From positions 44,606 to 108,605 of the forward strand of contig WGMQ01000008.1 in the NCBI GenBank assembly GCA_016125005.1: 64,000 nucleotides of DNA, given 5' to 3'. This DNA is from a bacterium. Lineage in GTDB: Bacteria; Sumerlaeota; Sumerlaeia; SLMS01. Under the pieces are notes generated by a model. That model did no database searches and was not told where the DNA came from. It was given only the letters and a program-made list of their open reading frames with translations. A program made the translations under genes and the position numbers. The stretch's first letter is position 1, and every line of letters starts with the position of its first letter. Below are positions 4,044 to 62,287 of the stretch, piece after piece.

Positions 4044-4159
4044 GCATGATCAGGACGCCTTCGGCAACAGGCAGAGGTCGTGGTAGCTTGGAAACCTCGG
4101 CTTGGCGGTCCCATTTCATCTCCCAATTGTGAGCCATATAGAGGGTGGAGGACTCAAGA

Positions 4160-4326
4160 TGCCGTCGGTCAGTCGTCGCACATTGGTTGGTCTCCTGATT
4201 GCGGGCGGAGCTGTTCTTGTGCTCGGAATTGGTTTCGGTTCCCCCCTACGGGAGTTTGTGATCGGTGCGGGCGCCGGGTTGCTTGGAGTGTCGGCTGTCT
4301 GGCTCGTGGGTTCTTTCGCGCGCTGA
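4160..4326 (+). CDS. Small Gly-rich membrane protein (55 aa from ATG with GGAGGA RBS)
   Basis: A strong GGAGGA RBS lies 6 nt upstream of the ATG at 4160. The product is a two-TM Gly-rich peptide, analogous to the 3557 ORF. Confidence 0.35.
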
Positions 4327-7527: not shown

Positions 7528-10500
7528 TCAGAATACCATCCAGATTTCGCCGACCGACGCATCCTGTGCGACCTGAATCGACATGCTCAGCGACGTCATG
7601 CCTGGAACGTCCGTCCATCCGGAAAGTTCCAGTGTCTGACCCGCCAGCGAGGACGGGATCGTGATCGTCAGCTCCGTCGACTCGCCCGGAAGGATCGTGG
7701 GGCGCGGGTGCGCCGCAATGACCGCTGGCACACCACCGGCGAAACGAAGCTGGCCGATATTCAGCGGCCCGAAGCCACTGTTCTCGATCGTATAGACAGC
7801 TGTCACTTCATCCGCGGCACCAGGAATGGTCACCGTGTCTGAGAAGCCAGCCAGCGGCGTGGCGTTTCGGGTGATCGTGACGGCAGGCAGACCCGCATCG
7901 CTTCCGTCCAGCGACCGGAGGTACGCTGTCAGGTTCGCCAGTTCCTCGGTCGTGAAGCCGCGCACGTGGGCGCCTGCAGCCGCCAGGTGATCGGGCGTCA
8001 CGATGCGGACCTCGTCCACGCTCAATCCACCCGACGGCCCGTTCTTCAGGACCGTCACGGTGTTCGTGCCTGCGGCAAACGCGATGGGGAAGCGGGCGAT
8101 GCGCCACTCGTTCGGCAGGTAGCTAGGGTTGTTGCCCGTCATCGGGAACGCCGCAGTGTTCGTGTTGGCGCCGATGCGAACGCCGAAGTTGCCGGTCGCA
8201 TAGCTCATGCTGTATCGGACGTCCACATAGCCTGTTCCTGCGGTGGATGAGACGATCCCCTCGAAGTTCAGGATACCGAGTTCATCGAAGCCAACGAACG
8301 CCCCCTGGTGCCACTCCTTCATGGGTGCCCAGTCGACTGTCTCGACGCTGACGGCACTGCTGGAAGTCGCGTCCTCCGCCTGCACGAGCAGTCCTCCAGC
8401 CGTGGTGAAGACCTCCTCAAGGGTCGTTGCGCTTCCGTTGTGCAGGTAGGGTGCCGAGTCGTGAAGGCCCAGCAACGTTGGCGTGTCTATACCGGTCAGC
8501 GTCGCGCCAAGGCGCGAGCCCGAGGCCACGTTCATGGTGCCGACGTCGTGCATGGTCCTGTCGGTGAAATCGGTCGCCGGGGAATGGCAGGACGCGCAGT
8601 TGTTCGCGGCAAAGAGGGCCTGTCCGGCAAGCGCCGCGGCACTGAGCGACCCATCGGATTGGCGATGGGGGCTGCGTGGCAGATGGCTGGTGCCGAGCGA
8701 GGCAACATAGGCCGCGAGTGCGTCCAGGTCCTCGCTGTGACCCGCCTTCGGTGCGCCGAGCGTGTCCATCAGGCTGGCCCAGTCGGAGTCCTGCAGGAAG
8801 CCCTCGCCGCCGAAGCCGTTGCGGATGTCGTTCTCGAAGTCCTGGATTTCGTCGAAGTTCGCGCTCCAGTGCACGTTGCCGTGCCAGGTCCCCGAGCGGC
8901 CGCGAAGGTCCGCCGTGTTACGGAATCCTTCGCCGCGATTTGTGAAGTCCCAGGTCCTGCCATCGTGTCCACCGGCGACGTGACAGGTCGCGCAGCTCAT
9001 GTAGCCCTCGGCACTCATGCGCGGGTCGGATGCGTGATAGAAGATCTGCTTCCCAAGGAGCACTTCATCGTGCAGCAATTCACGAGCGACCACCGGGATG
9101 GCTTGCGACGCGACGTTGCCATTGCCCGAGACGATGAAGGCATCGGCGCCCAGCACCGTTATCGTGCGATCCATGAAGTCGGCTGTATAGACACGGCTCG
9201 TCGACGGATCGACGACAAGTCCCTGTGGTGCCAGACCCGTCTGCCAGCGGGTCGAGATCGTGCCGGGGTCACTGGGATTGAAGAAGTCCAATACATCCAG
9301 GACCGCGACCTGCGCGTTGCCTTGCAGCGAGATGAAGGCGTAGTCACCGAGGGGGCTGAAATCGATCGCGGTGGGGGAGTCGCTGTTGTCTATATCGAGA
9401 CGATAGCTTGTGTCCTCGGCCCCCGAAGCCAGATTCACCAGCATCATCATCGCGCGGACCGTGTTGTCCTGTGAGAGGGCCTGATTGGGAGCCGAGAAGG
9501 TGCCACGCTCGGTGTTGTCCTTCTTGCCCACAATCCACGCCCATTCCCCGTCCGGTGAGATGTTGATACCGGCCAGATAGTTGGGCACACCGCGGCCGCC
9601 CGCGCTGCTATCGACGGTGTGGCTGCGTGCGAGGCGAATGGTTCGCGTCAGCGTCAGCGTCATCGTGCCGAGCGCCACATCGTAGACCGATCCTTGGTGC
9701 TCGCCGGAAATGAACCGCGTGATCAGCGCACGAGTGCCGTCGTGGGTGATCGCGATGGCGCGCGGATAAGGGCCGAGCACCACGCTGTGCGTTTGCACCC
9801 GTGTCGTCGCATCGAAGCGCCGCAGCGTGCCGTCGCCTTCGCACGACACGAGGAGGGCGCTGCCATTCGGCAGTGCGGCCACCGCCACAGGGCGTGAGCC
9901 GTAACCGGTGCCCATCGTCGCGATCAGCGCGCCGGTTGCGGCATTGAGTACATGAAGCTCGTCACTCTCGCTCGATGCGACCCACAGGGTCCCGTCTCCG
10001 GGAAGCGCGACGCTCATGGGATGCTTTCCAACGGCACTTTCCCAGAGGATCGCGTTGGTCGCCGTTACGACGGCGGTTACCGTCCGCGCATCAGGGTTGG
10101 CTGTATAGACAGTACCAGAAACCGAATCAATCGTGATCATGCTGCTGCGCGTTGCCCCCGGGTTGGCGGGAGGCGTCAACACGCTGATGGTCCTCGACAC
10201 GGCGTTCAGCGAACCCTGCGCGTCGCGCACCTGGACGGTCACCTGATAATGGCCTGCGGCTGTATAGACATGATTCGCGGACGTTGCCGCGCCCCAATCG
10301 GTCCTCGCTGTTCCATCGCCAAAGTCCACGCGATACTCCACGGCACCACCCTCAGGATCGCTGCCCGACCACGACAGCGCGACCGAGGCACCGGGCTGCG
10401 CGACTTCCGGCGACGCGATCACTGCGCCCACCATGGGCGGCTGGTTCCCTGCGCCGAGCGAGGCCCCAGTCGAGAAGGTGAAGCTGTACGCCTCCAGCGG

Positions 10501-11979
10501 ATTCCCCATCGCGTCCTGAATCGCGGCGGTCAGCAGCACCTCGTAGGTCGTGTTCTGCGCGAGGGGACTTTGCGGAGTCACTGTCAGTAGCTTGCCCTGA
10601 CCGAAGGAATGCCAGGTCGGCACCGGATCGCCGCCCAGCGGCCGCACGATCAGCGAGACACCATCCACGATGGTCTCGGTCCGAAGCGTCTCGGGGATCG
10701 AAAGTGTAATCGGGCAGACCGTGGAGAAGTTCGTCTGTCCCGCCGTCGGCACGTGGTAGAGCACGTAAGGCGAGCGCGTGTCCGGCTCGGCCTGATGGGC
10801 CCAGATCGCCATACCCGGCCCCAGCGTCCCGTAGCCGCCCGTGAAGACGAGATTCCCCACCGGCAAGGCGAACTGGCTCGCGTCGAGCGTCACATCGTTC
10901 GTCGCCAACGTCAGCTCGACCTCGAAGGTCCGCATGTCGATCTTGTAGTTGTTCATGAAGGCGTACTCGTCCTGGAACGTCACGTACTGATTCGATCCGG
11001 GAAGGTTCCGATCAGCCACGACCTTGAGGTCGGTCGGATCGGAAAAGTCCACCACCATAAAGCCCGCCTGGCTACCCGGCCCGCCCTCATTGTCGCGGCG
11101 CGGGAAGAAGACGTAGTGCCCGTAGACCTCGGGCCAGTAGCCGCCGGGGTTCTCCTCCTTCAGCACATCCAGCAGGATGGGATTCGTCGGGTCCGAAATG
11201 TCATAGGTGCAGACACCCGTGCCGGTCATGTCGGCTGCATAGACCAGGATATTCCCCATGATGAACGGAAAGCCCACCACGCCGGTCTGACCCAGATGAT
11301 CCCAGCTGTGAAGGATCGCGGGACCGGTGCGGGCTCCACCGTTCGCCCAATCATAGATATACTGACCCGGGCCGCGTCGCACGGCGATGAAGGAATTGCC
11401 GCCGACGGGGCTGTAGCTCCAGAAGTCCTCCACGCCCCAGGGCGATTGGGTCCCCGAACGATTGATCCCGCCGACGAGAAGCCCCGTGTCCTCGATGTCA
11501 GCGTGCGTCAGGCCACTGCCTAGAATCGCCGGACCGCTTCCGCCAATGCGAAAGCTGTTCACCCAATGATCGTCCGATCCATCGCAGAGCGATCCGTCGC
11601 CGCTCACGCAATGCGGCCCGATGTATAGATCGTTCCCCGAATGGAAGTAGGCGTGGGCATGAAAGCCGGTTGCTCGGAAGGGAAACACAGTCACCTGGGG
11701 AGAGGCCGGATCGCTGACGTCGTATAGACGCACCAAGTTGTCGGCGCCCCCCTGGCTTCCGGGGGCCTCGGGAACGGTGATGATGCGATCGCCGTGAAAG
11801 GCGATGATGGCGGTGCGGCCCTGCTCGGGCGAAATCGGTCCGGAAATCAACTCACCGGGTGTGCGCGCGACGTTCGGGAACGGAATGGCCAAGGCAAACT
11901 GGGCGGGCGCGATTGCTGCAAGAACCAGGATGCGGGATACTAGGGCTGTGGGGGTCACGGGAGGGAGACGCTTCCTCAA
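7528..11979 (-). CDS. Very large secreted multidomain protein: signal peptide, beta-propeller/YVTN-like repeats, PKD domain, and a di-haem cytochrome c peroxidase-like domain (two CxxCH motifs)
   Basis: Haem motifs CATCHVAGGHDGRTW and CASCHSPATDF. PKD-like segment YRVDFGDGTAR...HVYTAAGHYQVTVQV. A signal-peptide-like N-terminus. The track start is a TTG; an in-frame GTG at about 11958 is an alternative. Confidence 0.75.
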   Translation of the reverse strand: MRKRLPPVTPTALVSRILVLAAIAPAQFALAIPFPNVARTPGELISGPISPEQGRTAIIAFHGDRIITVPEAPGSQGGADNLVRLYDVSDPASPQVTVFPFRATGFHAHAYFHSGNDLYIGPHCVSGDGSLCDGSDDHWVNSFRIGGSGPAILGSGLTHADIEDTGLLVGGINRSGTQSPWGVEDFWSYSPVGGNSFIAVRRGPGQYIYDWANGGARTGPAILHSWDHLGQTGVVGFPFIMGNILVYAADMTGTGVCTYDISDPTNPILLDVLKEENPGGYWPEVYGHYVFFPRRDNEGGPGSQAGFMVVDFSDPTDLKVVADRNLPGSNQYVTFQDEYAFMNNYKIDMRTFEVELTLATNDVTLDASQFALPVGNLVFTGGYGTLGPGMAIWAHQAEPDTRSPYVLYHVPTAGQTNFSTVCPITLSIPETLRTETIVDGVSLIVRPLGGDPVPTWHSFGQGKLLTVTPQSPLAQNTTYEVLLTAAIQDAMGNPLEAYSFTFSTGASLGAGNQPPMVGAVIASPEVAQPGASVALSWSGSDPEGGAVEYRVDFGDGTARTDWGAATSANHVYTAAGHYQVTVQVRDAQGSLNAVSRTISVLTPPANPGATRSSMITIDSVSGTVYTANPDARTVTAVVTATNAILWESAVGKHPMSVALPGDGTLWVASSESDELHVLNAATGALIATMGTGYGSRPVAVAALPNGSALLVSCEGDGTLRRFDATTRVQTHSVVLGPYPRAIAITHDGTRALITRFISGEHQGSVYDVALGTMTLTLTRTIRLARSHTVDSSAGGRGVPNYLAGINISPDGEWAWIVGKKDNTERGTFSAPNQALSQDNTVRAMMMLVNLASGAEDTSYRLDIDNSDSPTAIDFSPLGDYAFISLQGNAQVAVLDVLDFFNPSDPGTISTRWQTGLAPQGLVVDPSTSRVYTADFMDRTITVLGADAFIVSGNGNVASQAIPVVARELLHDEVLLGKQIFYHASDPRMSAEGYMSCATCHVAGGHDGRTWDFTNRGEGFRNTADLRGRSGTWHGNVHWSANFDEIQDFENDIRNGFGGEGFLQDSDWASLMDTLGAPKAGHSEDLDALAAYVASLGTSHLPRSPHRQSDGSLSAAALAGQALFAANNCASCHSPATDFTDRTMHDVGTMNVASGSRLGATLTGIDTPTLLGLHDSAPYLHNGSATTLEEVFTTAGGLLVQAEDATSSSAVSVETVDWAPMKEWHQGAFVGFDELGILNFEGIVSSTAGTGYVDVRYSMSYATGNFGVRIGANTNTAAFPMTGNNPSYLPNEWRIARFPIAFAAGTNTVTVLKNGPSGGLSVDEVRIVTPDHLAAAGAHVRGFTTEELANLTAYLRSLDGSDAGLPAVTITRNATPLAGFSDTVTIPGAADEVTAVYTIENSGFGPLNIGQLRFAGGVPAVIAAHPRPTILPGESTELTITIPSSLAGQTLELSGWTDVPGMTSLSMSIQVAQDASVGEIWMVF

Positions 11980-12035: not shown

Positions 12036-13031
12036 CTACCCCTGCTTGGGCCCACCATCCTTCACGGGGACGCGCTCGCGGGAGAGCAACGTCGCCCGAG
12101 CCATCGTATAGTTCACCACGGCCACACCAAGCAGTACCACCGCACCGCCGCCGACCATCCATGGTGTCACTCGCTCATTGAGCAGCAGCACTCCCACCGC
12201 CAGCGCGACCACTGTATTCAGGTAGGTCGTCGTCCCGGCTACGTCGGCGGGAAGCGTCATCACTACATACATATAGCTGACGTACCCGAGCCACGAGCCG
12301 ACGACAATCAGGTGGATCACTGCGCCAATGGCGGCCGGGGAGATCTCGCGCACCTGCCAACTCCCAGAGAGCGTGCAGACGATCGCCGCCGCCACGCCTC
12401 CCGCCAGGCTCTGCGCCGCTGCGGTCATGAGCGGATGCGTACCGGGTCGGTAGCGCTTGGCGATGAAGCTCCCGAGCGCCCATGAAAGCGGCGACAGTAC
12501 CAGCGCCCCCATCGCCCACCAGAACATCGGCCCGCGCACCGACTCGCCCGCCGTGTGGCCTCCGCCGAGCGCCTCGCGCACGTCTGGATAGACAATCACA
12601 AACAGCCCCATGAATCCCACCGCCAGCCCCGCCCAGGCCAGCCGTGGAACCCGCTCGCCTGCGAACGCCGAAAGGCCCGCAAAGATCAGCGGCGCCGAGT
12701 TCACCATCAGCGCCGCGAAGACGCTGTCCACGTGCTGTTGGGCCCATGCCACCAACACATTCGCGCAGCACAGCAACAGGCATCCAACGGGAGCCAGCCG
12801 CAGCCAATCGCGTCGTGATGGAAACTGGATTCCGAAGCATCGCAGCGCCACCATCAGCGCGGCCCCGGCAAACACGAAGCGGATCGCCGCCAGCGTCAGC
12901 GGAGGAAACGCCGTGGTCGCCACCTTGATCCCCGCATAGGTCGTCCCCCACGCGATGCTCACGCAGACGTAGGCGGCAAGGGACAGGTACTTCCGCTTCG
13001 CCACCGGCGGTCTCTCGGGGATTGTCGTCAA
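12036..13031 (-). CDS. EamA/DMT-family (drug/metabolite) transporter, 10 TM
   Basis: Two EamA-like halves with a hydrophobic 10-helix profile. It overlaps purQ by 4 nt, suggesting an operon. Confidence 0.75.
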   Translation of the reverse strand: MTTIPERPPVAKRKYLSLAAYVCVSIAWGTTYAGIKVATTAFPPLTLAAIRFVFAGAALMVALRCFGIQFPSRRDWLRLAPVGCLLLCCANVLVAWAQQHVDSVFAALMVNSAPLIFAGLSAFAGERVPRLAWAGLAVGFMGLFVIVYPDVREALGGGHTAGESVRGPMFWWAMGALVLSPLSWALGSFIAKRYRPGTHPLMTAAAQSLAGGVAAAIVCTLSGSWQVREISPAAIGAVIHLIVVGSWLGYVSYMYVVMTLPADVAGTTTYLNTVVALAVGVLLLNERVTPWMVGGGAVVLLGVAVVNYTMARATLLSRERVPVKDGGPKQG

Positions 13032-13699
13032 GCTTTCGCCAATGCACCCATCAGGGAGTCGAAGATCACGCGCCCATCGACGCCACCCAGTTCCGTCTCC
13101 ATGGCACGTTCCGGGTGCGGCATCATGCCGAGCACGTTCCCCTCGCGGTTCATGATCCCCGCGATGGAGGCCACCGATCCGTTCGGGTTGTCGGCGTACT
13201 CGAACACCACCTGCCCGTTGTCCTGGAGCGACTTCAGGCCGTCGTTGTCGATGAAGTAATTCCCCTCTCCGTGGGCGATCGGGACGCGGAGTCGCTGGCC
13301 CGCCGACGCGGCGTTCGAAAACGCTGTGCCCGCCTGCTTCACCACCAGATCCGTCCAGAGGCAGCGGAACTTGAGGCCACTGTTACGATGAAGGGCGCCG
13401 GGAAGCAGTCCCGCCTCGCAGAGAATCTGGAAGCCGTTGCAGACGCCTAGGACCAGGCCGCCGCGGCTCGCGTGCTCGCGAACCGATTCCATCGCGCGGG
13501 AAAAGCGCGCCAGCGCGCCACAACGCAGGTAGTCACCGTAGCTGAAGCCACCCGGCACGGCGATCAGGTCCACGGGCTCCGTGAGGACGTCCGAATGCCA
13601 GAGCTTCACCAGATCCCAGCCCATCAACTTCACGGCACGGTGCATGTCCTGGTCACAGTTCGAACCGGGGAATGTGATGACGGCCACCTTGAGTGACAT
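13028..13699 (-). CDS. purQ: Phosphoribosylformylglycinamidine synthase subunit PurQ (glutaminase)
   Basis: VAVITFPGSNCDQDM, GVCNGFQILCEAGLLPG (Cys nucleophile), MPHPER... Confidence 0.9.
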   Translation of the reverse strand: MSLKVAVITFPGSNCDQDMHRAVKLMGWDLVKLWHSDVLTEPVDLIAVPGGFSYGDYLRCGALARFSRAMESVREHASRGGLVLGVCNGFQILCEAGLLPGALHRNSGLKFRCLWTDLVVKQAGTAFSNAASAGQRLRVPIAHGEGNYFIDNDGLKSLQDNGQVVFEYADNPNGSVASIAGIMNREGNVLGMMPHPERAMETELGGVDGRVIFDSLMGALAKA

Positions 13700-13712: not shown

Positions 13713-14429
13713 TCAGGAAATCTGGCGCACTTCGGCGCCGTGGTCGTGCCCGATGACGAGGGCCTTGCAATAGCCGATGAACAGGCCCGTTTCCATCACA
13801 CCAACAACCGTCTTCAGCCGCTGCTGCATCGCCATGGGATTGGCGATCCCGTTCGAAAATCGACAATCGACGATGTAGTGCCCCTCATCGGTCAGGAAGG
13901 TCGCACCATCCGCGCCCGTGCGCAGCCGTGTCTCGCATCCTAATGCCGTCAGCTTGGCGATGGTTGTCTCATGTCCGAATCGGACGATCTCCACCGGCAG
14001 GCGAAAGCCCAGACCAAGCCGTTCCACCAGCTTTGATTCGTCCACCACGATCAAGTGACGACGCGACCAATCGGCCACCATCTTCTCACGGAGCAATGCA
14101 CCGCCGCCCCCCTTGATCATCGCGCCATCGCGGGTCACTTCGTCCGCGCCATCGATGTATAGATCGATGCGATGATCGCGACCCAGCGGGATGATTGGTA
14201 CGCCATGCTCCGCGGCCAGCGTCTCCGTTGCCTTGGAGGTGCAGACTCCCTTGATCTGGAGCCCCTGCTCGCGCACGCGCTTTCCAAGTGCCTCGACCAG
14301 ATAGGCCGCCGTGGAGCCCGTTCCCAGGCCCACGACCATTCCCTGCTCCACGTGCGCCGCGGCTGCAAAGCCCGCATGCTTCTTTTGTTCTGCTGCGCCC
14401 ACCATCGGCTCCTTGCCCGTCCCGACCAC
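13713..14429 (-). CDS. rpiA: Ribose-5-phosphate isomerase A
   Basis: GLGTGSTAAY, DLYIDGADEV, KGGGGALLREK motifs. Confidence 0.85.
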   Translation of the reverse strand: MVGTGKEPMVGAAEQKKHAGFAAAAHVEQGMVVGLGTGSTAAYLVEALGKRVREQGLQIKGVCTSKATETLAAEHGVPIIPLGRDHRIDLYIDGADEVTRDGAMIKGGGGALLREKMVADWSRRHLIVVDESKLVERLGLGFRLPVEIVRFGHETTIAKLTALGCETRLRTGADGATFLTDEGHYIVDCRFSNGIANPMAMQQRLKTVVGVMETGLFIGYCKALVIGHDHGAEVRQIS

Positions 14430-15329
14430 TTAGTGGCCGAGGTAGTGTTTCCGGTAGCACTTGTTGAGCGTGTGCGCGCTCTGGTACATCGAATTGGGGC
14501 TCATGAAGTGGCTGAACTCGAACGTGATCAGCTTGTCCACCCCTGCCTCGCGCGCCGCGTCGATCTTGAACTTCAACTTCGGCCAACCGATGGGAGGAAA
14601 CTTGATCGGCATGTCCCGGTCAAACGATTCGACGTTCGACCACGAGGTGATCTTGTGCCGACGGGCCAGTTCGGCGTTCGCCTGCAGGTAGTCCTTCAGC
14701 ACCGGATAGTCCACATGCCCGTCCTGGAAGGCCACGATGTCCACCAGCCCCTGGATGCGCGAGAAAACCTGACCCCACTCCTTCTCGTGCTGATCCAGGC
14801 TGATCGCGTCGTCGAACTGCTTGATCCCCTTGATGTACGGGGAAATCAGGATCGGGAGCTGCCGCAGCCCGCGCAGGTGATTGGCCAACTGCTCGTAGAC
14901 CTTCATCACCCCTTCGTCGAAGCTGTTGATCTCATGGCACATGTACCAGCCCTGGAAGGCCTTGCGGTGCCCGTACTTGGCAAAGAACTCGTCACAGAAG
15001 GCGCGATTGATGTCGACCTCCTTCTGGGGCTGACCGCTGTGCCAGTACTCGCCCGAGTCGTAGGTCCCGAAGAAGAGCTTCATGCCATTGGCTTCCGCTT
15101 CCGTCAGGAAGATGTCCACCAGGTCATAGCCCGTCAGCAGATGCGGATGGCGCTTGCGCAGCACCTGCGAATCGAAGGTGCAGCGATCCTTGTAGCCCGC
15201 GCGGATGATGATAACCGTGTCGATGCCGATGTCCTTCATGGCGCGGAAGTCCGCCGCCCACTCCTCCGGGCCCCAGTTCTGATAGGGAATATCGTGAGTG
15301 ATCTCATCCAGGAAGGTTCCAGTAATCAT
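14430..15329 (-). CDS. DUF4434-like TIM-barrel (glycoside-hydrolase-like) protein
   Basis: MITGTFLDEITHDIPYQNWGPEEWAADFRAMKDIGIDTVIIIRAGY... resembles the DUF4434 family. The start was set at the ATG with an AGGACGAGG RBS. Its stop abuts the rpiA start. GC is slightly lower (about 57%). Confidence 0.55.
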   Translation of the reverse strand: MITGTFLDEITHDIPYQNWGPEEWAADFRAMKDIGIDTVIIIRAGYKDRCTFDSQVLRKRHPHLLTGYDLVDIFLTEAEANGMKLFFGTYDSGEYWHSGQPQKEVDINRAFCDEFFAKYGHRKAFQGWYMCHEINSFDEGVMKVYEQLANHLRGLRQLPILISPYIKGIKQFDDAISLDQHEKEWGQVFSRIQGLVDIVAFQDGHVDYPVLKDYLQANAELARRHKITSWSNVESFDRDMPIKFPPIGWPKLKFKIDAAREAGVDKLITFEFSHFMSPNSMYQSAHTLNKCYRKHYLGH

Positions 15330-15434
15330 GACACACCTCGTCCTTTCACGCGACAGGCAATGGCCGGGCATCCCCGGACGCCCGGGAGCATGGCAACCAA
15401 GCGACCGGGGGAAAGGGGATTTTGGAGGGGGAGA

Positions 15435-16070
15435 TCAGTGTATAGGGGGACTTTGGAAGAGTCGCTGGACCCACTGGACAAGTTGGTCGGCAACTGGCGA
15501 GTCTGACCTGATATAGCCGTGGCCGATCGCCTTCCCATATGGCACGCCCGGTACTTCCTGCCACGCCAGCCATGTATGCAGCAGCGCCTTGCGCCTGGCG
15601 CCATCGGCAAACAGGCGTTCGGCAGCAGGAATGGCGTCGACGGAACTCGTAGCGTAGGAGTATAGCCATGAATCCGTTGGAACCAGCGGGAGGATGAAGT
15701 CTTCCAACGCGCCAGCCGAACGGTTGTCGGGCATCAACCATGCCCCAAATCTCGGCAGTAGCAACGACGGCTCTGCCTGGATAATCGTTCCCAACGGGTC
15801 GGCCGAATATGGCACATTTGGATAACCCTTTTCCATCAAGATCTTCCGTACTTTCTCCCAGCATCTCTGCACACTCGTATCCGCATCGACCACGATTCCA
15901 ACGACGTCGCCATCGCTCCCCTTCAGATGGCCGGGAAGAATTCTGAGAAGCGGATCGATCCCTTTACAGTCCTTGACTGTTTCAATTGGTGGGACGCGTC
16001 GGCGCTGGCACAGGTTTGAGACGACGTGCAGGTCATCGTTCCCCTCAAAGAGCAGCACTTGAGTGCCCAT
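15435..16070 (-). CDS. Small TOPRIM-like protein (DUF4276/RloB-like), partner of upstream ABC-type ATPase
   Basis: N-terminal LLFEGNDD (TOPRIM hhhEGxxD motif) and GIVVDADTS (DxD motif). Its start is 2 nt from the ATPase stop, so translation is coupled. Local GC is about 45-55%, against about 65% in the flanking sequence. Confidence 0.55.
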   Translation of the reverse strand: MGTQVLLFEGNDDLHVVSNLCQRRRVPPIETVKDCKGIDPLLRILPGHLKGSDGDVVGIVVDADTSVQRCWEKVRKILMEKGYPNVPYSADPLGTIIQAEPSLLLPRFGAWLMPDNRSAGALEDFILPLVPTDSWLYSYATSSVDAIPAAERLFADGARRKALLHTWLAWQEVPGVPYGKAIGHGYIRSDSPVADQLVQWVQRLFQSPPIH

Positions 16071-16072
16071 GC

Positions 16073-17299
16073 TCAGCGGACCTCGATCCGTTCTTGAGCG
16101 ACGACTTCCAATTCCTCGCCCCGGAAATAAGTGGGAACGATTTCATCGCCGACTCGTGTCAGCCGCAGCAGCAGACCCGCGTCCTCCTCCTCGGACTCCG
16201 ACGCTGCCTGCTGAAACGCCTCCACAGCGTCCCAACTATGCGAGGTGGCGAAGACCTGCACGTCCAGCTTCTTGGCGAGTTGGAAAACCAGCCGCCATGC
16301 GTCGTATTGGACGGTGTGGTGCAGGCCGTTCTCGAACTCGTCGATAAGGAGGAGTCCGCCCTCCACATTGACCATCGAAAGGATGATACCGAACAGGCGA
16401 TTGATGCCGTCGCCCAAAGACCTGAGCGCGACAGGTCGGAGGAAGCGATCGACTCTAGCAACTGCGATACGCTCTGATTCAGCATTCTCCACCATGCCCA
16501 CGCCCCTGATGGATGGATCGATAAGCCTTAGGGCCTCGACGACCTGCTCCTCTCGATCTGTCAGGGCCACCATATCCCAAAGCCTTCCCAGTCGCCTCTG
16601 CGGTTGAGCGATCGCGGCATGAATGAGCAGTGAGGCACACCGGGCAGGCCGTGCTTGCCTGTCCAGTTTGCCTCGCAAGCATTCCACTGTAGCTTCGTAG
16701 TCGGTATCGGTCCCGATTTCGTCATCCTCGTGCTTGCGGGTAACGGTTCCGCTCCACTGAGTCGCTGTGGGGGGGATTCGAGCTGTACCAAGCTCATCGG
16801 TTGTCTGAAGTGGACCGACCTCTCGGGCCGATCCCATGTACAGCTGTATGCCAGTCTTCCCACACTCCGTGGTGCCCTCAATCGATAGGGGATGACTCGC
16901 GCTGGCAAGCTCGTAATTCCAGAAAAGGCTGCTGAACTCCGCAAGAAAGCGGTCAGGAGTGATGAGATCCCCCTTCCCCAGAAACATGGATAGCTCACCA
17001 CGAATCCTCTGGAGTTCGCCTATCATGTGAAACGAACCGTTAGTCGCGAATATACTGAGCGCCTCAAGCACCGACGACTTGCCCGTATTGTTCCGCCCCG
17101 TGATCATGTTCACACGGGCGAGGTTCTCCAGGCGCAGTTCCCGGAAGGCCCGAAAGTTCTTGATCGTTAAACTCGTTAGCGGCGCCGCCACGTCTGTCGT
17201 TCCTGACCGCGAAAGGGAATCGGTGGGCGACGTGATCAGATTGTCGCCCCGTTTGATGGTCAGGCTCTTCCTTTCCGCCCGGAATGCAAGCCCTACCAT
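16073..17299 (-). CDS. ABC/AAA_21-family (OLD/RloA/AriA-like) ATPase
   Basis: Start of ABC ATPase fold LTIKNFRAFRELRLENLARVNMITGRNNTGKSSVLEAL (Walker A). Walker B LLLIDEFENGLH. H-loop ATSHS. The N-terminal extension in the track ORF may be an overcall. Confidence 0.8.
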   Translation of the reverse strand: MVGLAFRAERKSLTIKRGDNLITSPTDSLSRSGTTDVAAPLTSLTIKNFRAFRELRLENLARVNMITGRNNTGKSSVLEALSIFATNGSFHMIGELQRIRGELSMFLGKGDLITPDRFLAEFSSLFWNYELASASHPLSIEGTTECGKTGIQLYMGSAREVGPLQTTDELGTARIPPTATQWSGTVTRKHEDDEIGTDTDYEATVECLRGKLDRQARPARCASLLIHAAIAQPQRRLGRLWDMVALTDREEQVVEALRLIDPSIRGVGMVENAESERIAVARVDRFLRPVALRSLGDGINRLFGIILSMVNVEGGLLLIDEFENGLHHTVQYDAWRLVFQLAKKLDVQVFATSHSWDAVEAFQQAASESEEEDAGLLLRLTRVGDEIVPTYFRGEELEVVAQERIEVR

Positions 17300-17889
17300 A
17301 CCCAGTCGCTTCCCCCCTGATTTGAACCGTCCCTCCCAGATCTACCGCCCATTATCGTTGCCCCGCCCGAGGGGCATCTCTCCCCCTACCTCCTGAGTGA
17401 GAGACGACGTGAACGCTGTCCTCGGTCTTGACCGACCCCACAACTGTTCACGCCGTCTTCCCGGCCGACCGCCCTATCGTTGGCTTCATGACCACCGCGC
17501 GATGCTTGCTGTGTCGCGCTGGCTCTGGGTGGGATGGAACCGGCGGGGCGACCAAGGCACTCGCTCGGGATGATCGCCTCCGCGGGCAAGGGGTTGGCAG
17601 GCCTCGTTGAGCGGCAGGATCGACAATCGACGGAGGCGTCCAACATGCCCGGCGCGCCTCCGCCCGTCCCTACTCCCATTCGCAATCCCATGACAGCCAC
17701 GGAATCCCTGTTGCATCGGCACGGGGGAGGTCCGTAACGTCCCGCGCCCCGAGTTTGTGAAAATAATCACAACCCGGATTCATCGCGGGCGTTGACGCGG
17801 AACCCGGCCCTTCGCACAAAAGGGGCCGTTCATCCGCCGCGTTCGGTGCGCAGGCGCACCACACATTCGCACACCAGAGCATCCACCAC

Positions 17890-20586
17890 ATGGCTGATCA
17901 AACCGTCCACCCATCCCTGAAGCCCGGCACCGAGGATATCAGGTTCTTCCTGAACGACCGGGAGGTCGTGGGCAAAAAAGGTGAAACGATCATCACCGTG
18001 GCTGCCCGCGAGGGCGTCTACATCCCGCACTATTGCTGGCACCCGTCGCTCAGCGTCGCGGGCAACTGCCGCCTGTGCCTCGTGGAGGTCCACCTCCCCG
18101 ATCCGCGCAACCCCGATGCGCCCGCCAAACCTGCTCCCAAGCCCGTCATCGGCTGCCAGACCCCGATCAGCAACGGCCTTCGCGTCTATACCGAGTCCAA
18201 GGTCGCCCAGGAATGCCAGCAGGGCATGATGGAGTTCCTGCTCGTCAACCACCCGCTCGACTGCCCCATCTGCGACCGCGGCGGCGAGTGCCAGCTCCAG
18301 CGCTACTCCATGGAGTACGGCGCCGGGCACACGCGCATGGCCGACGAGAAGCGCAAGTTCCACAAGCCCCAGGCCGACCCCCTCATCGACATCGAGCGCA
18401 ACCGCTGCATCATGTGTACCCGCTGCGTCCGCTTCAACGACGAGGTCGGTGGCGAGCACGTCATGGGCGTCTTCGACCGCGGCGAGGGGAACTACATCGG
18501 CACCTTCGGCCAGGGCCCCGTCTCCAACATCCTGTCCGGCAACATCATCGACATTTGCCCCGTCGGCTGCCTCACCTCCCGTCCCTTCCGCTTCAAGGCC
18601 CGTGTTTGGGAACTCGCCCAGACCCAGTCCACCAGCATCTGGGACGCCTCTGGTGCCAAGGTAACCCACTGGACGCGCAATCGCAAGCTGATGCGCACCA
18701 CGCCCCCCTCCCGCAAGGCCCACGACCGCTACACGGTCAACGAGGACACGGAGGAGTTCATCGACAACATCACCCGCTTTGGGTCCGACTTCGGCCTGCA
18801 CGCGGATCGTTGGGACGAGAGCCGCATCCGCATCGGCGGAACGCTGATCCCGGGCGCCTTCGTCGAGGCGGTTCGCCAGGCGGCCGGCTCGCTCGCCAAG
18901 ACCAAGGTCAACCATGGCGCCGATTCCATCGCGGTCCTCGTGTCGCCCCGCGCCACGATGGAAGAGGGCTTCCTCGCCGCCAAGTTTGCCCGCACGGTGA
19001 TCGGCAACGACAACGTGGACTGGCGCATGAGCTTTGCCACGGCGGCCTCCGCCGACGCGGCTTCGCTGGCTTTCCAGCACGCTGACGGTGACCTGAACGA
19101 CGGCTTCAGTGCCGTGGTCCTGGTCAACGGCGACTACCTGCATCAGGTCCCGACTTTTGCCATGCGCGTGAAGGAATATGCGCGCCTGAACAACAAGCCG
19201 GTCATCATGATCGGCCACCACCATGACGCCTACTTCTCCAAGTGTGCCGGTCGCCGTCAGTACGGCTGCCGTCCCGCGGAGACCTCCCGCGCGCTTGAGT
19301 TGCTGTCCCTCGCCATCAAGGGCGATGCGGCGGGCAACGGCGAACTGGCGAAGATCTTCTCCGTCGCCGAGTCCGAGGTTGCCTCGCTGGTCGATCTGCT
19401 GAAGGGAGTCGCCGGCAAGGCGCTCCTGATCCAAAGCCTCGAAGATATGAACGGCGCCTACCTGCCGTCGGAAGTTCCCGCGGCCCTGACGCTCAAGGCT
19501 GCCCTCGGCGCCACTTGGAAGTACATTCCCGTGCTTCGCGACCGTAATGCCTTCGGCCTGTACGCTGTCGGCGCCCAGCCCGGACGCCTCCCCGGCAGCG
19601 AGGAAGCGGTTCGCAAGGCTTGGAAAATCAATGAGAAGGCGCAGATTCCGACCGCCGGTGGCCAGCACGCCCGCGATCTGGTCGCCGCCATCGAGGAAGG
19701 GCGCATCAAGGGCCTCCTCGCCCTCGGCGCCGATGTGCTTTACAGCTACCCCGATCAGGACCGGCTCCTCGCGGCTCTGGAGAAGCTGGAAACCTTCGTG
19801 GTCTCCGACCTCTTCAATTCCGAGATCACCCGCCGCGCCACGGTTTTCTTTGCCGCCGCCTCCAACCTGGAGCGCGATGGCGTGATGGCTGACCTGGAAG
19901 GCAACCTGGCCCGTCTCAAGGATGTGGACGGCCCGACCGGTGGCGCTCGCCCCGATTGGGAGACCCTAACCGGCATCGCGACCATGATGGGTTCGACCGC
20001 CTTTGCCTACGAGTCCGTCGAGGACGTCTTCAACGAAATGATCCGTCTCGTGGCTCCCGGCTTCCGTGGCAGCTTCACAGGACTGGAACTCGCCGGACCG
20101 GCCAACGACCACTCGGTGCAGGATCCCGGTGGTGCCCGCCGCCGTACCCCGGCCTACAACCCCGGCGACTATCGCGTCGACGGCGCGCATTTGCGCTGGT
20201 CGTCCGAGCCCTTTGCCGGTGCGATTCCCGCTGTTGCCGCCGAGGCGCCCGCCGCCGCCGGTCAGTTCCTCCTGACTTGGGGCGAGCACGTGCAGGGCGA
20301 CGACTACCACCTGAACCACGCCTCGATTGCTCACCTGCTGAAGGCCAAGCCCTACGTCGAGGTTCATCCGGCGGATGCGGCGACCCTCGCGCTGGAGGAC
20401 GGCAAGCGTGCCGTGCTGACCGTCGGGACCGAGTCCATCGAGGTCACGGCACGGGTCCGCAAAGGCCCTGCTCAGGGAACGCTTTATTTCCCGGCAGGTC
20501 TGGGCGGGCTCAAGCTGACGGGCTTGGGCGAATCGTTGACGGCAGGGCTTCAACCCGCGTTGGAGACGGAGTTGGCCTCCGTTTGA
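17890..20586 (+). CDS. nuoG: NADH-quinone oxidoreductase subunit G (long form with molybdopterin-oxidoreductase-like C-terminal domain)
   Basis: 2Fe-2S motif CWHPSLSVAGNCRLCLVEV. 4Fe-4S motifs NHPLDCPICDRGGECQLQ and CIMCTRCVRF. 898 aa. Confidence 0.9.
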   Translation: MADQTVHPSLKPGTEDIRFFLNDREVVGKKGETIITVAAREGVYIPHYCWHPSLSVAGNCRLCLVEVHLPDPRNPDAPAKPAPKPVIGCQTPISNGLRVYTESKVAQECQQGMMEFLLVNHPLDCPICDRGGECQLQRYSMEYGAGHTRMADEKRKFHKPQADPLIDIERNRCIMCTRCVRFNDEVGGEHVMGVFDRGEGNYIGTFGQGPVSNILSGNIIDICPVGCLTSRPFRFKARVWELAQTQSTSIWDASGAKVTHWTRNRKLMRTTPPSRKAHDRYTVNEDTEEFIDNITRFGSDFGLHADRWDESRIRIGGTLIPGAFVEAVRQAAGSLAKTKVNHGADSIAVLVSPRATMEEGFLAAKFARTVIGNDNVDWRMSFATAASADAASLAFQHADGDLNDGFSAVVLVNGDYLHQVPTFAMRVKEYARLNNKPVIMIGHHHDAYFSKCAGRRQYGCRPAETSRALELLSLAIKGDAAGNGELAKIFSVAESEVASLVDLLKGVAGKALLIQSLEDMNGAYLPSEVPAALTLKAALGATWKYIPVLRDRNAFGLYAVGAQPGRLPGSEEAVRKAWKINEKAQIPTAGGQHARDLVAAIEEGRIKGLLALGADVLYSYPDQDRLLAALEKLETFVVSDLFNSEITRRATVFFAAASNLERDGVMADLEGNLARLKDVDGPTGGARPDWETLTGIATMMGSTAFAYESVEDVFNEMIRLVAPGFRGSFTGLELAGPANDHSVQDPGGARRRTPAYNPGDYRVDGAHLRWSSEPFAGAIPAVAAEAPAAAGQFLLTWGEHVQGDDYHLNHASIAHLLKAKPYVEVHPADAATLALEDGKRAVLTVGTESIEVTARVRKGPAQGTLYFPAGLGGLKLTGLGESLTAGLQPALETELASV

Positions 20587-20751
20587 CGGGGGTGAAGTGA
20601 CAGGAAGCGGGGCCGGAAGTGGTCCAGTCTGCGATTGACTCACCTCGGTTGGGTCACCTTAAGTTCCGCGTCCTCAAGGTAGGGTTTGTGAATTTTTTCT
20701 CAAACTGGCCGGGCATGAGTGCGTCCGCCACACCACGACAGGCTAAAGGGC

Positions 20752-22185: not shown

Positions 22186-22214
22186 TCCGGCGAAAGACCT
22201 GAGGAGAACCACCT

Positions 22215-22763: not shown

Positions 22764-22810
22764 GATTTCAAGGGCGCCCATGACGGGCCACCACGACTGA
22801 AACGGAAACC

Positions 22811-23374: not shown

Positions 23375-23377
23375 TCC

Positions 23378-43077: not shown

Positions 43078-46000
43078 CTACCGCATCATCCATCCCTCGC
43101 GGCTGGAGGGATCGAGTCCCTCGACCACGGTGAGCGATCGTCCGATCGGGATCGCTTGCAGCAGCAGGTCGGGCACACCAGCGGCCTGTCGCTCCACCGT
43201 GTATAGAATGCTATACGAGCCTGACCACTGGAGTCTCTCCGCCGGGAGCAGGCCGATCCAGCGACCGGGTGTAGTCGGATCGGGGCCCAGGGGAATTTCG
43301 ATGTAACCAGTGATAGGGTTTCCCTCTCCAGCGAGAGGGCGCCCAAACGCCACATAGGCACGGACGGTCCCCGAGTCGTTGGGGCCAAGCTGGCACCAGA
43401 GCTCGAAGTCGGTCGGCTCCTCGATCGTGGCGTCCGGCCTGGCGTTGAGCAGCTCCGGAGGCAGGGCCGCGAAGGAGGCCACCTCACCGATGCGCCAATT
43501 GATGGCCACCAATCCGTCACGGCCAGTCTGCACGCCGTCGCCATCATCGTCAAAGATCGGTCGCTGGGGCGCATCGATGGGGGTGTTCATCGCCACAATA
43601 AATCCGCGGGCAACCGCATAGGACGAATTGAAGTCGAGACCAGAAAAGACGGAGGAGAGGAACGAGTGAATGAAGGAGACGTTGCCCACGGCGCCGCCAT
43701 AGGATGCCAGTCGGTCAATCTCCGTCGAGGCGATGACAAGACGGCGTGTTCCCGGAGGCGAACCCGCGCACCGCGCGACGAAGCCGCCAGCATAGCACAT
43801 GTCCACCACCACCGCCAGCTCCGTCAGCGGATCGGTTCCCGATTGTACAGCGTCGAGCCATCCATCGAACTGTGAGGCCAGCAGACCTTCCCTCGGGACG
43901 GTAGTCCCATCCAGGAGGAACAACCAGTCATCCGTCCCAACGCGCTCTCCATGGTCGAGCAGGAAGACAGTGACCTTGCGTGCGTCGCGGGCCCAACTGC
44001 TCATACCCTGCTCCAGGCTGGCTCTCGTTGCCGGTCCGTCTACACCCGCCGTGGCGCCAAAGGCGGAAAGGTACAGAATGTTGTCAGCGCTGATTCCACG
44101 ACTCGTGGCAACGCGATAGGCATAGTTCGCCAGGTCGCGGGTCTGCTGGGCGATCCCATTGCCCAGATAGTTACCGCCGCCGGCAACGATGATGACCTTC
44201 TCCTTGGTGCGCTGTGAGGGCACCGGCGTGGGAACGGGAGTCGGGCTTGGCGTCGGGGTGGGCGGCGCTCCGGGGACGCAGCAATTCACCGTCACGCGGA
44301 AGCGACTCACATCCGTCAGGTCACCATAAATGTCCCGCGCGCGCAGGTGGAGCCAATAGGTTCCATCCGCCTGTCCCGGCTGGTTCAGGAAGAGGTTCCG
44401 CGTCGTCCGGCTTGTCTCGGTCGGGATCGTGTCCTCGTTCGAATCTAGCTCGAAGAAGTAGTTTCCATCCAGATAGGCTGGCTCGGCAACCGACCACCCA
44501 AAGACCAGGTTTCGCCCGTAGGCGTTGCGCGGGTCCGGGTGGCTGGAGGACTGGATGACGGGCGCAGCAACCAAGCGGATATGGATGGGGAAGTGTGCGA
44601 CGTCGGACAACTCACCATATCGAGTCACGCTGCGGACGTGCAAATAGCTGGTTCCAACAGGCAGCAGGCCTACGTTGAGCAAGGTTCCCGTCGTTGAGTC
44701 ATCCGACTCTCCCGGCATGGTGTCCGGCTCCTGATCGACTGTATAGACAAACCTTGTCGCGGTCGCATCTGGGTCGACGAGTGCCGCCAGCGCGTCCCGC
44801 CTCGCATACGCCGTTATCCGCGATGGATGCGTGCTGGAGGACACCAAGGGCGCTGCCGCACCGGATCGGATGTTGATGCGGAAGGAGGTCGTTGGCGAGA
44901 GCAGCCCGTACTGATCCTGGTAGCGAACATGCAGGTAATGGGTGCCCGGCAGCAGACCCGAGAAGTTTCCGCCGGATGATGTCGTGAAGGTTCCCCGGGA
45001 CAGCGGATCCTCCGAAGACTGGTCGCTCAGCAGATAGTAAAACCCCGCGGTTGTATCCGGAGCAGCGAGCCCCTTGTCTTGACGCAACACGGGTGGAGTC
45101 CATGAGGCCGTAACCTCGCGCGCCGCATACTCCCGCCCCTGATCGGGATGGGTGCTCGACGTGACTGAGGGGGTCGCCTCCGTCACGATGAACCCGTGGT
45201 GAGTCGTCTCGGACCAGTTGCCGAGACGGTCCTCCGCCTGCACATGGAGCCAATACCATCCCGATGCAAAAGGTCCAAAGCGAACCTGCGCGTTCGCCGT
45301 TGTGAAGTCGTCCGCGCTCAGTTGGGTTTCCGGGCTGCTGTCGATCCTCATGCGGAAGCGCGTATAGCTATCCGACGGAATCCCGGCCGGGGGGAGGATG
45401 TTGGCGATGAACTCGCGATTGAGGAACGGTTGGCTACTGTTTGGGTGCGTGGAACTGCTCACCACCGGGGCGCCTGCCACCCGGATCAGCCAAGTGACTT
45501 GGCGACTCGGGATCGTATTGTTGTCCTGATCCAGCGGCACCAGATGATAGTACCACAGGCCCGGCGTGAGGTTCAGTTGCGCAAAGTCGCGGCGCTGCGT
45601 CAGTTCCCCGTTCAGGAACGTGACAGTTGTCGAGGGAGACCTGTCGAGCAACTGGAAGAACCGCCCTGTCCCACCAACTTGGAAGTTCGGCCAAGTGATC
45701 GAGAAGTTGGGTTGGTGAAAGCCGTACTTCTGGGTCGGGTGCGAGGGGGAGATCAGGCGGTAATAGCGATCCTCGAAGAAGTCGGGGAGTAGGTTTCCGT
45801 TCTGGTCATCGAAGCCATCCCGGACCCCGTTTCCGTCGCGATCCTCGAACGCGTCCGCCAACCCGTTTCCATCCAGATCCAGGAAGGCTTCGAAGACACG
45901 GTCGCCGTCATAATCGGTGAATGCCTCGGCGATTCCGTCGCCGTCATAGTCGGTGAATCCCTCAGCAATCCCGTCGCCATCATAGTCCGTGAAGGCCTCG

Positions 46001-48522: not shown

Positions 48523-49657
48523 GATCCTCGCCTCCCTTCTCCTCACCAGATGGGGGAACTTCCGAAGACTTGGTCCCAGGGAGACTTGCACCGGCGGGGA
48601 TATAAAGGCGGAAACCAACCTCGTCCGAGGTGGCATCGCGAAGGATCGCGCGACGCTCGCTGGCTCCGCACCACTGGAAGGGAGAATTCCAACTGCCGCC
48701 CTTGGCAATGGTCGGTGAATCGGTGAACTCCCAAACATTCCCGTGCATGTCGTAGAGGCCCCAGGCGTTGGGTCGCTTACGGCCCACGGTCGACGGCCCC
48801 GATGAACTATTGTCGAGAGACCAGCACAGGGCACTCGTCGACGGAGGAGCCGCTCCACCCATGGTGGCATTAACGGTGAAGTCGGCGAACTCCCCCGTGC
48901 CACCGGCCCGACAAGCGTACTCCCACGCGGCTTCGCTCGGGAGCGAAAGCGCCGCGATGCCGGTCTTGGCGCGCAATCGCTGGAAAAAACCAGCGCCGTA
49001 ATCGCCACCGTTGGTCAATTCATCCCACGAGATCCCCGTCGCCGGATAGGAACCGGATGTGCCCGGCAGTTCCCCTGTCACTCGTGCATACTCCTCAGCC
49101 GTAACCTCATAGGCGCCCATCCAGGATCCATCAGGAAGCTCTCGAAGCACGAGTTCCCAACTGTTGGGGAAAGGCTTGGTTTCGGAGTACGTAACCGGGT
49201 AGCCTGTTGATGAAGGGCCACTTGCAACGCTGATTCCCATGTACCTGCCCGGGGCGATTCTCCCCGTGTCGCTGGCACGGACGTATAGTTGAATGTCACT
49301 CCGCGAGAAAACATAGGGAATGTCCGCCGAGGCCAGCCAGGTCAGTCGATAGGTCCCTGGTGCGAAACGTTTGTTGGTCCAGCTACGCCCCGGCACGCCA
49401 AGCGTGCTGATCTCGTACCATGTCAGAGACGAGGCCGGATTGGTTCCGTACCCGTCCGCGTTCGGCGCGTGAGTCCACAGGTCCAGCCAGCACGAGTCAC
49501 CATCCGCATCAGCCAGCGTGAAGGTGATGTCGACCCGGCGCAGGTTGGCCTGTCCCGTCACGGTGTATGATACATTAGAAACGACCGGGTCAGCCGCCAG
49601 CGCCGCAAACGGCAGGCAGGCCAGTGCCAAAATTCCCATCAATCTGGGTATCATCAT
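48512..49657 (-). CDS. Secreted FGE/SUMF1-domain (formylglycine-generating-enzyme-like) protein
   Basis: Signal peptide MMIPRLMGILALACLPFAALA. FGE-sulfatase domain motifs PSEAAWEYACRAGGTGEF and RKRPNAWGLYDMHGNVWEFT. Its stop overlaps the start region of the giant gene. Confidence 0.8.
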   Translation of the reverse strand: MMIPRLMGILALACLPFAALAADPVVSNVSYTVTGQANLRRVDITFTLADADGDSCWLDLWTHAPNADGYGTNPASSLTWYEISTLGVPGRSWTNKRFAPGTYRLTWLASADIPYVFSRSDIQLYVRASDTGRIAPGRYMGISVASGPSSTGYPVTYSETKPFPNSWELVLRELPDGSWMGAYEVTAEEYARVTGELPGTSGSYPATGISWDELTNGGDYGAGFFQRLRAKTGIAALSLPSEAAWEYACRAGGTGEFADFTVNATMGGAAPPSTSALCWSLDNSSSGPSTVGRKRPNAWGLYDMHGNVWEFTDSPTIAKGGSWNSPFQWCGASERRAILRDATSDEVGFRLYIPAGASLPGTKSSEVPPSGEEKGGEDHAE

Positions 49658-62258: not shown

Positions 62259-62287
62259 CGAGTGCTTACATACTGGAGGATGTGTCT

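Follow-up and report, generated by a model that had tools for sequence, protein, structure and literature searches.

A candidate defence operon of the PDC-M38 family pairing an ABC ATPase with a DUF3226 Toprim-type protein in a Sumerlaeota genome

The two genes and their predicted products

The stretch analysed here (the window) comprises 64,000 nucleotides (nt) of a Sumerlaeota genome (GenBank assembly GCA_016125005.1, contig WGMQ01000008.1, positions 44,606 to 108,605). Next to nuoG it carries two adjacent reverse-strand genes, the first encoding an ATP-binding cassette (ABC) ATPase and the second a protein of 211 amino acids (aa) belonging to the Pfam family DUF3226 (Table 1). A preliminary description, made from the letters of the DNA, had read the pair as a horizontally acquired cassette of an ABC ATPase and a separate TOPRIM-like protein, similar to OLD, PARIS and RloAB. 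Its general assignment, as a split two-gene system in the manner of OLD, PARIS and AbiL, is borne out by Pfam and PADLOC matches with E values from 1e-20 to 1e-82 and by fold comparison, whereas the accompanying suggestion of an unrecognised variant is not, since both proteins match the catalogued family PDC-M38 over their full length. Judged by sequence, through the matches to the A and B models, the adjacency of the two genes and the Pfam DUF3226 assignment, the window pair is a PDC-M38 member. With a probability of roughly 0.6, it is best explained as a self-contained, translationally coupled operon of this candidate defence family, in which a sensor ATPase would restrain a nuclease and then release it in an abortive-infection response.

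The elements from which the preliminary description started are all present, namely the two open reading frames (ORFs), the Walker A, Walker B and H-loop motifs of the ATPase, and the LLFEGNDD and VVDADT motifs of its partner; the motifs are conserved in 44 homologues. Exactly 2 nt separate the TGA stop of the ATPase gene from the ATG start of the DUF3226 gene on the same strand. The 408-aa protein described earlier exists as the longest ORF, but the product is probably shorter. Homologous ATPases are all 364–380 aa long and their alignment begins at about residue 37–41 of this ORF, so that the true start is probably the GTG at 17191, which has an AGGA 9 nt upstream and yields a protein of 372 aa.

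The ATPase matches Pfam AAA_15 (6.7e-23) and AAA_21 (1.4e-20), and its best PADLOC match is the PDC-M38A model PDLC04611 (1.8e-82), with residues 41–408 placed on model positions 2–383 of 383. Four more PDC-M38A models match at 1e-26 to 1e-44, and the AbiLi model PDLC02336 is matched at 7.4e-63 over positions 4–340 of 340. The PADLOC models for AriA, GajA, Old, PtuA and HEC-01A fit far less well than those of PDC-M38A and AbiLi, and NCBIfam returns only sub-threshold P-loop matches (RecF, Rad50 and others). With a Walker A, a signature-like motif, a Walker B, a D-loop, an H-loop and an ABC head fold, in a model that resembles Rad50/SMC heads, the protein is an SMC/Rad50-head-type ABC ATPase of the AbiLi lineage. 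Among the 44 homologues, the family-wide motifs read RSxGDGxNR (signature-like), DEFENGxH (Walker B and D-loop) and ATSHSWD (H-loop). In addition, all 44 ATPases end in an I/V-E-V/I-R tail with E370 and R372 invariant, which may act as a docking site for the nuclease. Between these conserved parts lies a hypervariable central insert, in which the mean frequency of the most common residue is 0.11–0.42, against 0.6–0.78 in the ATPase core (66 paired loci). Residues 127–183 are disordered in the AlphaFold2 model of the ATPase, and the insert is proposed to be a sensing or partner-binding region.

The 211-aa protein is a textbook DUF3226 member, matching PF11536 at 3.3e-56 (190.8 bits against a cut-off of 27) over positions 2–208 of 208, and two PADLOC models of PDC-M38B over its full length (PDLC04624, 7.2e-46; PDLC04623, 3e-30). 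The earlier, tentative placement with DUF4276 and RloB did not survive: no RloB, DUF4276, DUF4435 or Toprim_OLD match was obtained in Pfam at E <= 0.1, and a DUF4276, RloB or DUF4435 identity was rejected in favour of DUF3226 (Pfam) and PDC-M38B (PADLOC), the only families found. NCBIfam gives no model for the protein, and PDB sequence searches with the single protein or with the family profile returned nothing meaningful, PH0156 of Pyrococcus horikoshii (PDB 2p62) being missed too.

An AlphaFold model of the protein, built from 44 homologues (predicted local distance difference test score, pLDDT, 92.6; predicted template modelling score, pTM, 0.88), consists of a four- to five-stranded alpha/beta domain (residues 1–113) followed by five helices. 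It displays the Toprim arrangement, with a central parallel sheet, a conserved Glu after strand 1 and a DxD motif after strand 3, the strand 56–62 being present in the model. The closest fold is PH0156 (score 11.2, 173 residues), an uncharacterised protein of 17% identity that is missed by the hidden Markov model of the bacterial DUF3226 family and adds no mechanism. It is followed by the C-terminal catalytic region of the class 2 OLD protein of B. pseudomallei (BpOLD; 6nk8; 10.5, 151 of 204 residues), T. scotoductus OLD (8.5, 123), Retron Ec67 (8.1, 154) and GajA (7.6, 142). The Toprim character first read from two short motifs is thus matched by the predicted fold, with the OLD C-terminal region and GajA among the nearest structures.

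Conservation, scored over the 44 homologues, extends from the Toprim motifs into the helical domain, where G109, W111, M113, P114, N116, G120, E123, F125, K161, T166–Q171, P174, G175 and G179 are invariant. The segment K-A-x-I-H-T-W-L-A-W-Q-x-x-P-G-x-P-x-G-x-A-I (residues 161–182) is almost invariant across phyla; this block outdoes the metal-binding motifs in conservation, and P2 Old lacks an obvious counterpart of it. The two-metal site of BpOLD is formed by E400, E404, D455, D457, T506/E508, where the helical domain begins, and K562 (PMC6755086). The acidic residues and the lysine of DUF3226 follow the order of this site, including the spacing of a Glu and an acidic residue at +4, and the P2 Old equivalents of the DUF3226 motifs are VEGKTE, ADCDF and GDIE. 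By position, E9 and D13 would correspond to BpOLD E400 and E404, while E123/D124 and K161 are proposed, by chain order only, to be equivalent to E508 and K562. As modelled, the DUF3226 protein looks like the OLD catalytic region reduced to a minimal, stand-alone form, equipped with a full set of putative acidic metal ligands and a conserved lysine, and it is predicted to be a metal-dependent nuclease.

Table 1. Features of the two-gene cassette and of other parts of the window (positions in the 64,000-nt stretch)
Feature	Position	Strand	Remarks
1,483-aa protein	7528..11979	-	see text
PurQ-type amidotransferase	13028..13699	-	downstream of rpiA
rpiA	13713..14429	-	downstream of the DUF4434 gene
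DUF4434 gene	14430..15371	-	313 aa; Pfam 6.5e-71; downstream of the pair
DUF3226 / PDC-M38B gene	15435..16070	-	211 aa; OLD-type Toprim plus helical domain; predicted metal-dependent nuclease effector
Helical-domain block: GxWxMPDN, GxLEDF (E123, D124), K161, HTWLAWQxxPGxPxG	15516..15745	-	conserved in the family
DUF3226 residues 161–182	15525..15590	-	almost invariant across phyla
DxD motif D62-A63-D64 within VVDADT	15879..15887	-	end of strand 3; D62 and A63 invariant; D64 mostly D, occasionally N
Toprim Glu motif LLFEGNDD	16032..16055	-	E9-G10-x-x-D13 after strand 1; E9, G10 and D13 >=90% conserved
ABC ATPase gene (PDC-M38A / AbiLi-like)	16073..17299	-	longest ORF 408 aa
C-terminal tail IEVR	16076..16087	-	putative docking site
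H-loop ATSHS	16235..16249	-	A315, T316, S317, H318 and S319 invariant in 44 homologues
Walker B and D-loop LLLIDEFENGLH	16319..16354	-	L281, L282, D284, E285, F286, E287, N288 and H291 invariant in 44 homologues
Signature-like LRSLGDGINRL	just N-terminal of Walker B	-	R257, G260, D261, G262, N264 and R265 invariant
Hypervariable central insert of the ATPase	16592..17011	-	about residues 61–200 of the 372-aa form
Walker A / P-loop GRNNTGKSS	17072..17098	-	G32, N34, N35, G37, K38, S39 and S40 invariant in 44 homologues
Non-coding stretch 5' of the ATPase	17300..17700	.	without counterpart in the nearest relative (DNA comparison)
Gap between ATPase ORF and nuoG	17300..17889	.	590 nt
Conserved nuoG leader or promoter	17701..17889	.
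nuoG	17890..20586	+	divergent from the pair; nuoH next
1,976-aa ORF	43078..49008	-	see text
475-aa TPR-repeat protein	62282..63709	+	see text

Occurrence of the family and acquisition at the nuoG site

DUF3226 relatives were detected in at least 586 of 185,579 species genomes (degenerate-pattern scan, one genome per species), in phyla that include Armatimonadota, Chloroflexota, Planctomycetota, Verrucomicrobiota, Spirochaetota, Bacteroidota, Pseudomonadota, Cyanobacteria, Acidobacteriota, Latescibacterota and others. A profile search against 1.84 billion representatives returned 4,544 DUF3226 clusters at E <= 1e-3 and 1,219 at E <= 1e-30 (clusters made at 50% identity), and the best 150 representatives are all stand-alone proteins of about 200–275 aa. 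An ATPase homologue lies directly upstream on the same strand, at a distance of 0–49 nt, in 79 of the 80 related loci kept, which represent more than 15 phyla; the lone exception has just 91 nt of upstream sequence. Furthermore, the two partners have diverged together, their pairwise identities being correlated at r = 0.87 (Mantel p = 0.001, 66 loci). Pfam and PADLOC scans and an all-against-all BLAST of the -1/+1 neighbours at 49 loci revealed no third conserved gene, only synteny among close relatives, and no helicase partner is conserved beside the pair among these neighbours. The DUF4434 protein encoded downstream of the pair in the window was rejected as a component of the system, as it never recurs at other loci and its gene has a native-looking guanine-cytosine (GC) content at third codon positions (GC3 0.86).

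Several copies of the pair are found near other defence genes or on mobile elements. A defence gene is located next door in roughly 1 in 7–10 loci, including HmaB, type II methyltransferases, a DUF1156 methyltransferase, PDC-S01/S06 and Septu PtuA, so that defence genes make up about 10–15% of the immediate neighbours, and eight plasmids carry a DUF3226 relative. For instance, a 6.4-kb ColE10 MOBQ plasmid of Citrobacter freundii (NZ_CP055541.1) encodes an ATP-binding protein and a DUF3226 protein at 2466–4312; beyond mob/traD and one ORF annotated as 'tRNA modification GTPase', which precedes it, the pair is the only cargo. On a 14-kb Acinetobacter plasmid, the pair adjoins RelE/ParE. In Plesiomonas shigelloides (NZ_CP027853.1, 6856–8600), genes for an AAA ATPase and a DUF3226 protein follow P2-like tail genes (tape measure, tail protein X and a gpD-like gene) at a distance of a few kb, a position that recalls the accessory or defence hotspots of P2.

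In the window, base composition separates the pair from its surroundings. Its GC content is 0.57–0.58 (0.55–0.60 in 400-nt windows), against 0.62–0.68 in the flanks, and the GC3 values of the two genes are 0.64 and 0.67 against a mean of 0.80 (standard deviation 0.07) over 37 ORFs of the window, giving z = -2.2 and -1.75. The lower GC noted in the preliminary description therefore stands as a sign of foreign composition, but the value of about 45% given there as its lower end was never seen. Both exact proteins were found only in one NCBI metagenome-assembled genome and its read set, and the best homologues of the DUF3226 protein and the ATPase, from other phyla, are 44–51% identical (51% for the best DUF3226 match).

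The NuoG sequence places the window genome in Candidatus Sumerlaeota. Comparison with six Sumerlaeota relatives (NuoG identity 84, 78, 70, 69, 67 and 67%) showed that all of them retain nuoGHIJK downstream and that each has a different gene upstream of nuoG: a TPR and Chlam_PMP protein, a MATE-like membrane protein, an FGE-sulfatase, a glycosyltransferase cluster, a DUF202 gene with a Na/H exchanger, or an unannotated 543-aa protein. The ATPase, DUF3226, DUF4434, rpiA and purQ genes are all absent from the nuoG flanks fetched from these relatives. The site upstream of nuoG is thus a variable chromosomal spot that differs among the six relatives and the window genome. Within this lineage of Sumerlaeota, nuoG stands first in an operon, nuoGHIJK..., that is separate from nuoA-F (window 17890–23400; loci L082–L086 and L091–L093).

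Horizontal acquisition of exactly the two genes is supported by the GC3 deficit, the absence of the pair in the six relatives and the 44–51% identity of the best homologues, which come from other phyla. A clean insertion between rpiA-purQ and nuoG, as envisaged in the preliminary description, cannot be demonstrated, because the upstream neighbour of nuoG differs each time and no empty site was found, a metagenome scan with NuoG returning nothing. The pair is indeed absent upstream of nuoG in the six relatives, but a native DUF4434 gene intervenes between it and rpiA-purQ, and rpiA and purQ never lie beside nuoG in those genomes. At the cassette borders, no meaningful direct or inverted repeats, tRNA, Rfam element or integrase were detected.

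The 590-nt gap reported before nuoG is real and is made up of two parts. DNA similarity (80%) to the relatives L082/L083 starts at 17701, about 190 nt before nuoG, and continues into the gene. Positions 17701–17889 share about 80% of their letters with the nearest Sumerlaeota relative despite its differing upstream gene, and the homology stops sharply at 17700. This segment is a conserved nuoG leader or promoter, while 17300–17700 belongs with the foreign or rearranged side and presumably holds the promoter of the cassette. The stretch upstream of the ATPase has no Rfam match, ORFs of the gap have no Pfam match, and the gap shows no similarity to the upstream regions of other pair loci.

Elsewhere in the window, the strongest compositional outlier is the gene of the 475-aa TPR-repeat protein (GC 0.53, GC3 0.53, z = -3.8), which is probably another foreign gene. 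The 1,976-aa ORF combines FG-GAP repeats with a weak, sub-threshold match to Ntox24 (bacterial toxin 24) and may encode a polymorphic-toxin-like surface protein. In addition, the 1,483-aa protein contains Big_5/PKD domains, beta-propeller repeats and di-haem cytochrome c peroxidase/cytochrome c modules.

Relation to known ATPase–Toprim systems

PDC-M38 is one of 145 candidates obtained through 'guilt by embedding' in type I restriction-modification (RM), BREX and DISARM loci (bioRxiv 10.1101/2024.01.29.577857). The window pair has the same gene order and adjacency, matches both models end to end and shows no structural difference. The PDC-M38 models come from copies inside RM, BREX or DISARM loci, whereas the window copy is solitary, between the DUF4434 gene and nuoG.

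AbiL of Lactococcus lactis (AbiLi plus AbiLii) shares with the window pair the ATPase type, an ATPase-first two-gene operon, which AbiL requires, and a small Toprim-related second effector. However, AbiLii is of the RloB family (PMC10440598), whereas the window partner has no RloB/AbiLii match at E <= 0.1 and belongs to DUF3226 instead. PARIS is more distant: the AriA models give only weak, partial matches to the window ATPase (2.5e-23, in two stretches), and AriA is larger, with coiled-coil inserts. AriB, a DUF4435 protein of about 35 kDa, has its own dimerisation region, while the window protein has neither a DUF4435 nor an AriB match. By analogy, AbiL and PARIS would show how the pair works, but its different effector family keeps it out of both. 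In OLD proteins (P2 Old and the class 2 BpOLD and XccOLD) and in GajA, the ATPase and nuclease are fused, whereas the window genes are split and lack a Pfam Toprim_OLD match; class 2 OLD and Gabija also have a UvrD-type partner. Being split and without a helicase, the pair is not an OLD or Gabija system. HEC-01, an Hma-embedded candidate composed of an ABC ATPase plus a Toprim protein, has the same two-gene layout and ATPase models that match weakly (2.2e-14), but its B component is unmatched. In a recent survey, the Toprim partners linked to AAA15/21 comprise Toprim_OLD, DUF4435, RloB and DUF4276, and DUF3226 is not among them, for which reason the DUF3226 branch is under-described, yet it is already catalogued.

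Proposed mechanism, alternative explanations and significance

The interpretation of the pair as a defence operon draws on family membership, fold, motif conservation, obligatory pairing, co-divergence, sporadic distribution, foreign composition and plasmid and prophage-tail contexts, all of which are observed. From analogy with PARIS, AbiL, the NetFlax ATPase:Toprim pairs and P2 Old, we infer a physical complex, sequestration, a trigger, a substrate and an anti-phage phenotype. An ATPase oligomer would bind the DUF3226 nuclease and hold it silent until the variable ATPase insert senses a cue given by an invader, be it a phage or another mobile element, and this signal is coupled to ATP binding or hydrolysis. 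The nuclease, once freed or activated, would cut nucleic acid, and growth of the infected cell would halt. The leading candidate target would be tRNA, as for AriB and P2 Old, with DNA as another possibility, as for GajA and BpOLD. In PARIS, AriA sequesters AriB, Ocr triggers its release, and AriB cuts tRNA-Lys (PMC11464382). Similarly, P2 Old is a tRNase opened by tetramer destabilisation (bioRxiv 10.64898/2026.07.10.737580), and AAA ATPases neutralise the toxicity of RloB and TOPRIM_OLD partners in E. coli (PMC10440598).

Several findings weigh against this interpretation. The immediate neighbours at 49 loci, the window included, are unrelated between loci and mostly housekeeping genes rather than defence islands (for example methylmalonyl-CoA mutase, aconitase, a class II aminoacyl-tRNA synthetase, DnaA, RF3 and HrcA, with two transposases), and 50,697 phage records contain no match to the DUF3226 family. 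PADLOC grades PDC-M38 only as a candidate, and a literature search across 8 million full texts found 'DUF3226' and 'PDC-M38' in no paper. The similarly organised HEC-01 failed to protect when first assayed (Payne et al., bioRxiv 10.1101/2024.01.29.577857) and was protective in a later study. On the structural side, the Foldseek link between DUF3226 and OLD is weak (E about 0.015), and hhalign against P2 Old gave a probability of only 6.7% for the Toprim part, with the Glu motif set on VLLVEGKTE. The suggested active-site match with BpOLD follows residue order along the chain, and the AlphaFold2 model of the ATPase has medium confidence only. Finally, a scan for sigma-70 promoter and terminator consensus upstream of the ATPase found nothing above shuffle expectation.

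A more far-reaching version of the defence hypothesis is tentative. It would make the DUF3226 pairs a distinct fifth OLD-like ABC-ATPase/Toprim branch, beside Old, Gabija, the reverse-transcriptase-linked class and PARIS, with its own insert-read trigger and its own substrate, for example a particular tRNA, set by the HTWLAWQxxPG surface. If so, the mostly solitary life of these pairs among housekeeping genes in environmental phyla, unusual in that defence islands are seldom their setting, could mean a role beyond phage defence, such as surveillance for defects in DNA or replication, lately suggested for P2 Old.

Less probable is that the pair is a selfish, toxin-antitoxin-like addiction module, in which DUF3226 would be the toxin and the ATPase the antitoxin, the module being kept since its loss kills the cell, with no dedicated anti-phage role. 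The near-sole cargo status on the 6.4-kb mobilisable plasmid, the position beside RelE/ParE on another plasmid, the solitary placement of most chromosomal copies among housekeeping genes and the neutralisation of RloB/TOPRIM_OLD toxins by AAA ATPases in classical toxicity-neutralisation assays are all in keeping with such a module. Addiction is, however, compatible with defence, since abortive infection is what many pairs of this sort bring about; an ATPase of 372 aa whose catalytic apparatus is conserved and whose insert is hypervariable exceeds what neutralisation needs, and the PDC-M38 models derive from copies embedded in RM, BREX or DISARM.

It is rather unlikely that the pair acts directly on plasmids or other foreign DNA by DNA cleavage, in the manner of Wadjet JetD or Gabija GajA, instead of through RNA-cleaving abortive infection. 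The nearest solved folds (the C-terminal regions of BpOLD and XccOLD, and GajA) are those of DNA nucleases, and the PDC models come from copies inside DNA-targeting systems; but the 372-aa ATPase has no long coiled coil of the kind needed for loop extrusion, helicase partners of the GajB or UvrD kind are not conserved, and the best-studied split relative, PARIS, as well as P2 Old, are tRNases. A DNA-repair pair of the RecF/RecR or Rad50-Mre11 type, processing DNA ends or gaps, is very improbable: RecF is the best NCBIfam match of the ATPase N-terminus (5.4e-11), the model is like Rad50/SMC heads and neighbours are often housekeeping genes, but the RecF match scores 42 bits, where the cut-off is 172, and extends over the P-loop region only (N-terminal 57 residues), and the patchy distribution, foreign composition, absence in six close relatives and plasmid carriage misfit core repair.

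Interpreted as a candidate defence operon, the window pair is a real cassette that is ordinary for its kind, and it represents no new kind of system. The annotation of the window is raised in that its two 'hypothetical/AAA family' genes become a catalogued candidate defence system, horizontally acquired by a Sumerlaeota genome. Old, Gabija, PARIS and AbiL belong to the ABC-ATPase/Toprim pairs, which rank with the most common immune modules of bacteria and whose mechanisms are just beginning to be worked out. With about 4,500 clusters and at least 586 species-level genomes in many phyla, the DUF3226 branch is a large one, and it is missing from published lists of Toprim partners. It combines a predicted minimal OLD-catalytic effector with constant coupling to an AbiLi-type ATPase that carries a fast-evolving insert. 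The main value of the pair lies in offering a compact experimental entry to this large family, a system of about 1.8 kb for studying by what means such ATPases detect infection and permit a nuclease to act, for which the pair on the 6.4-kb Citrobacter plasmid is a handy natural construct.

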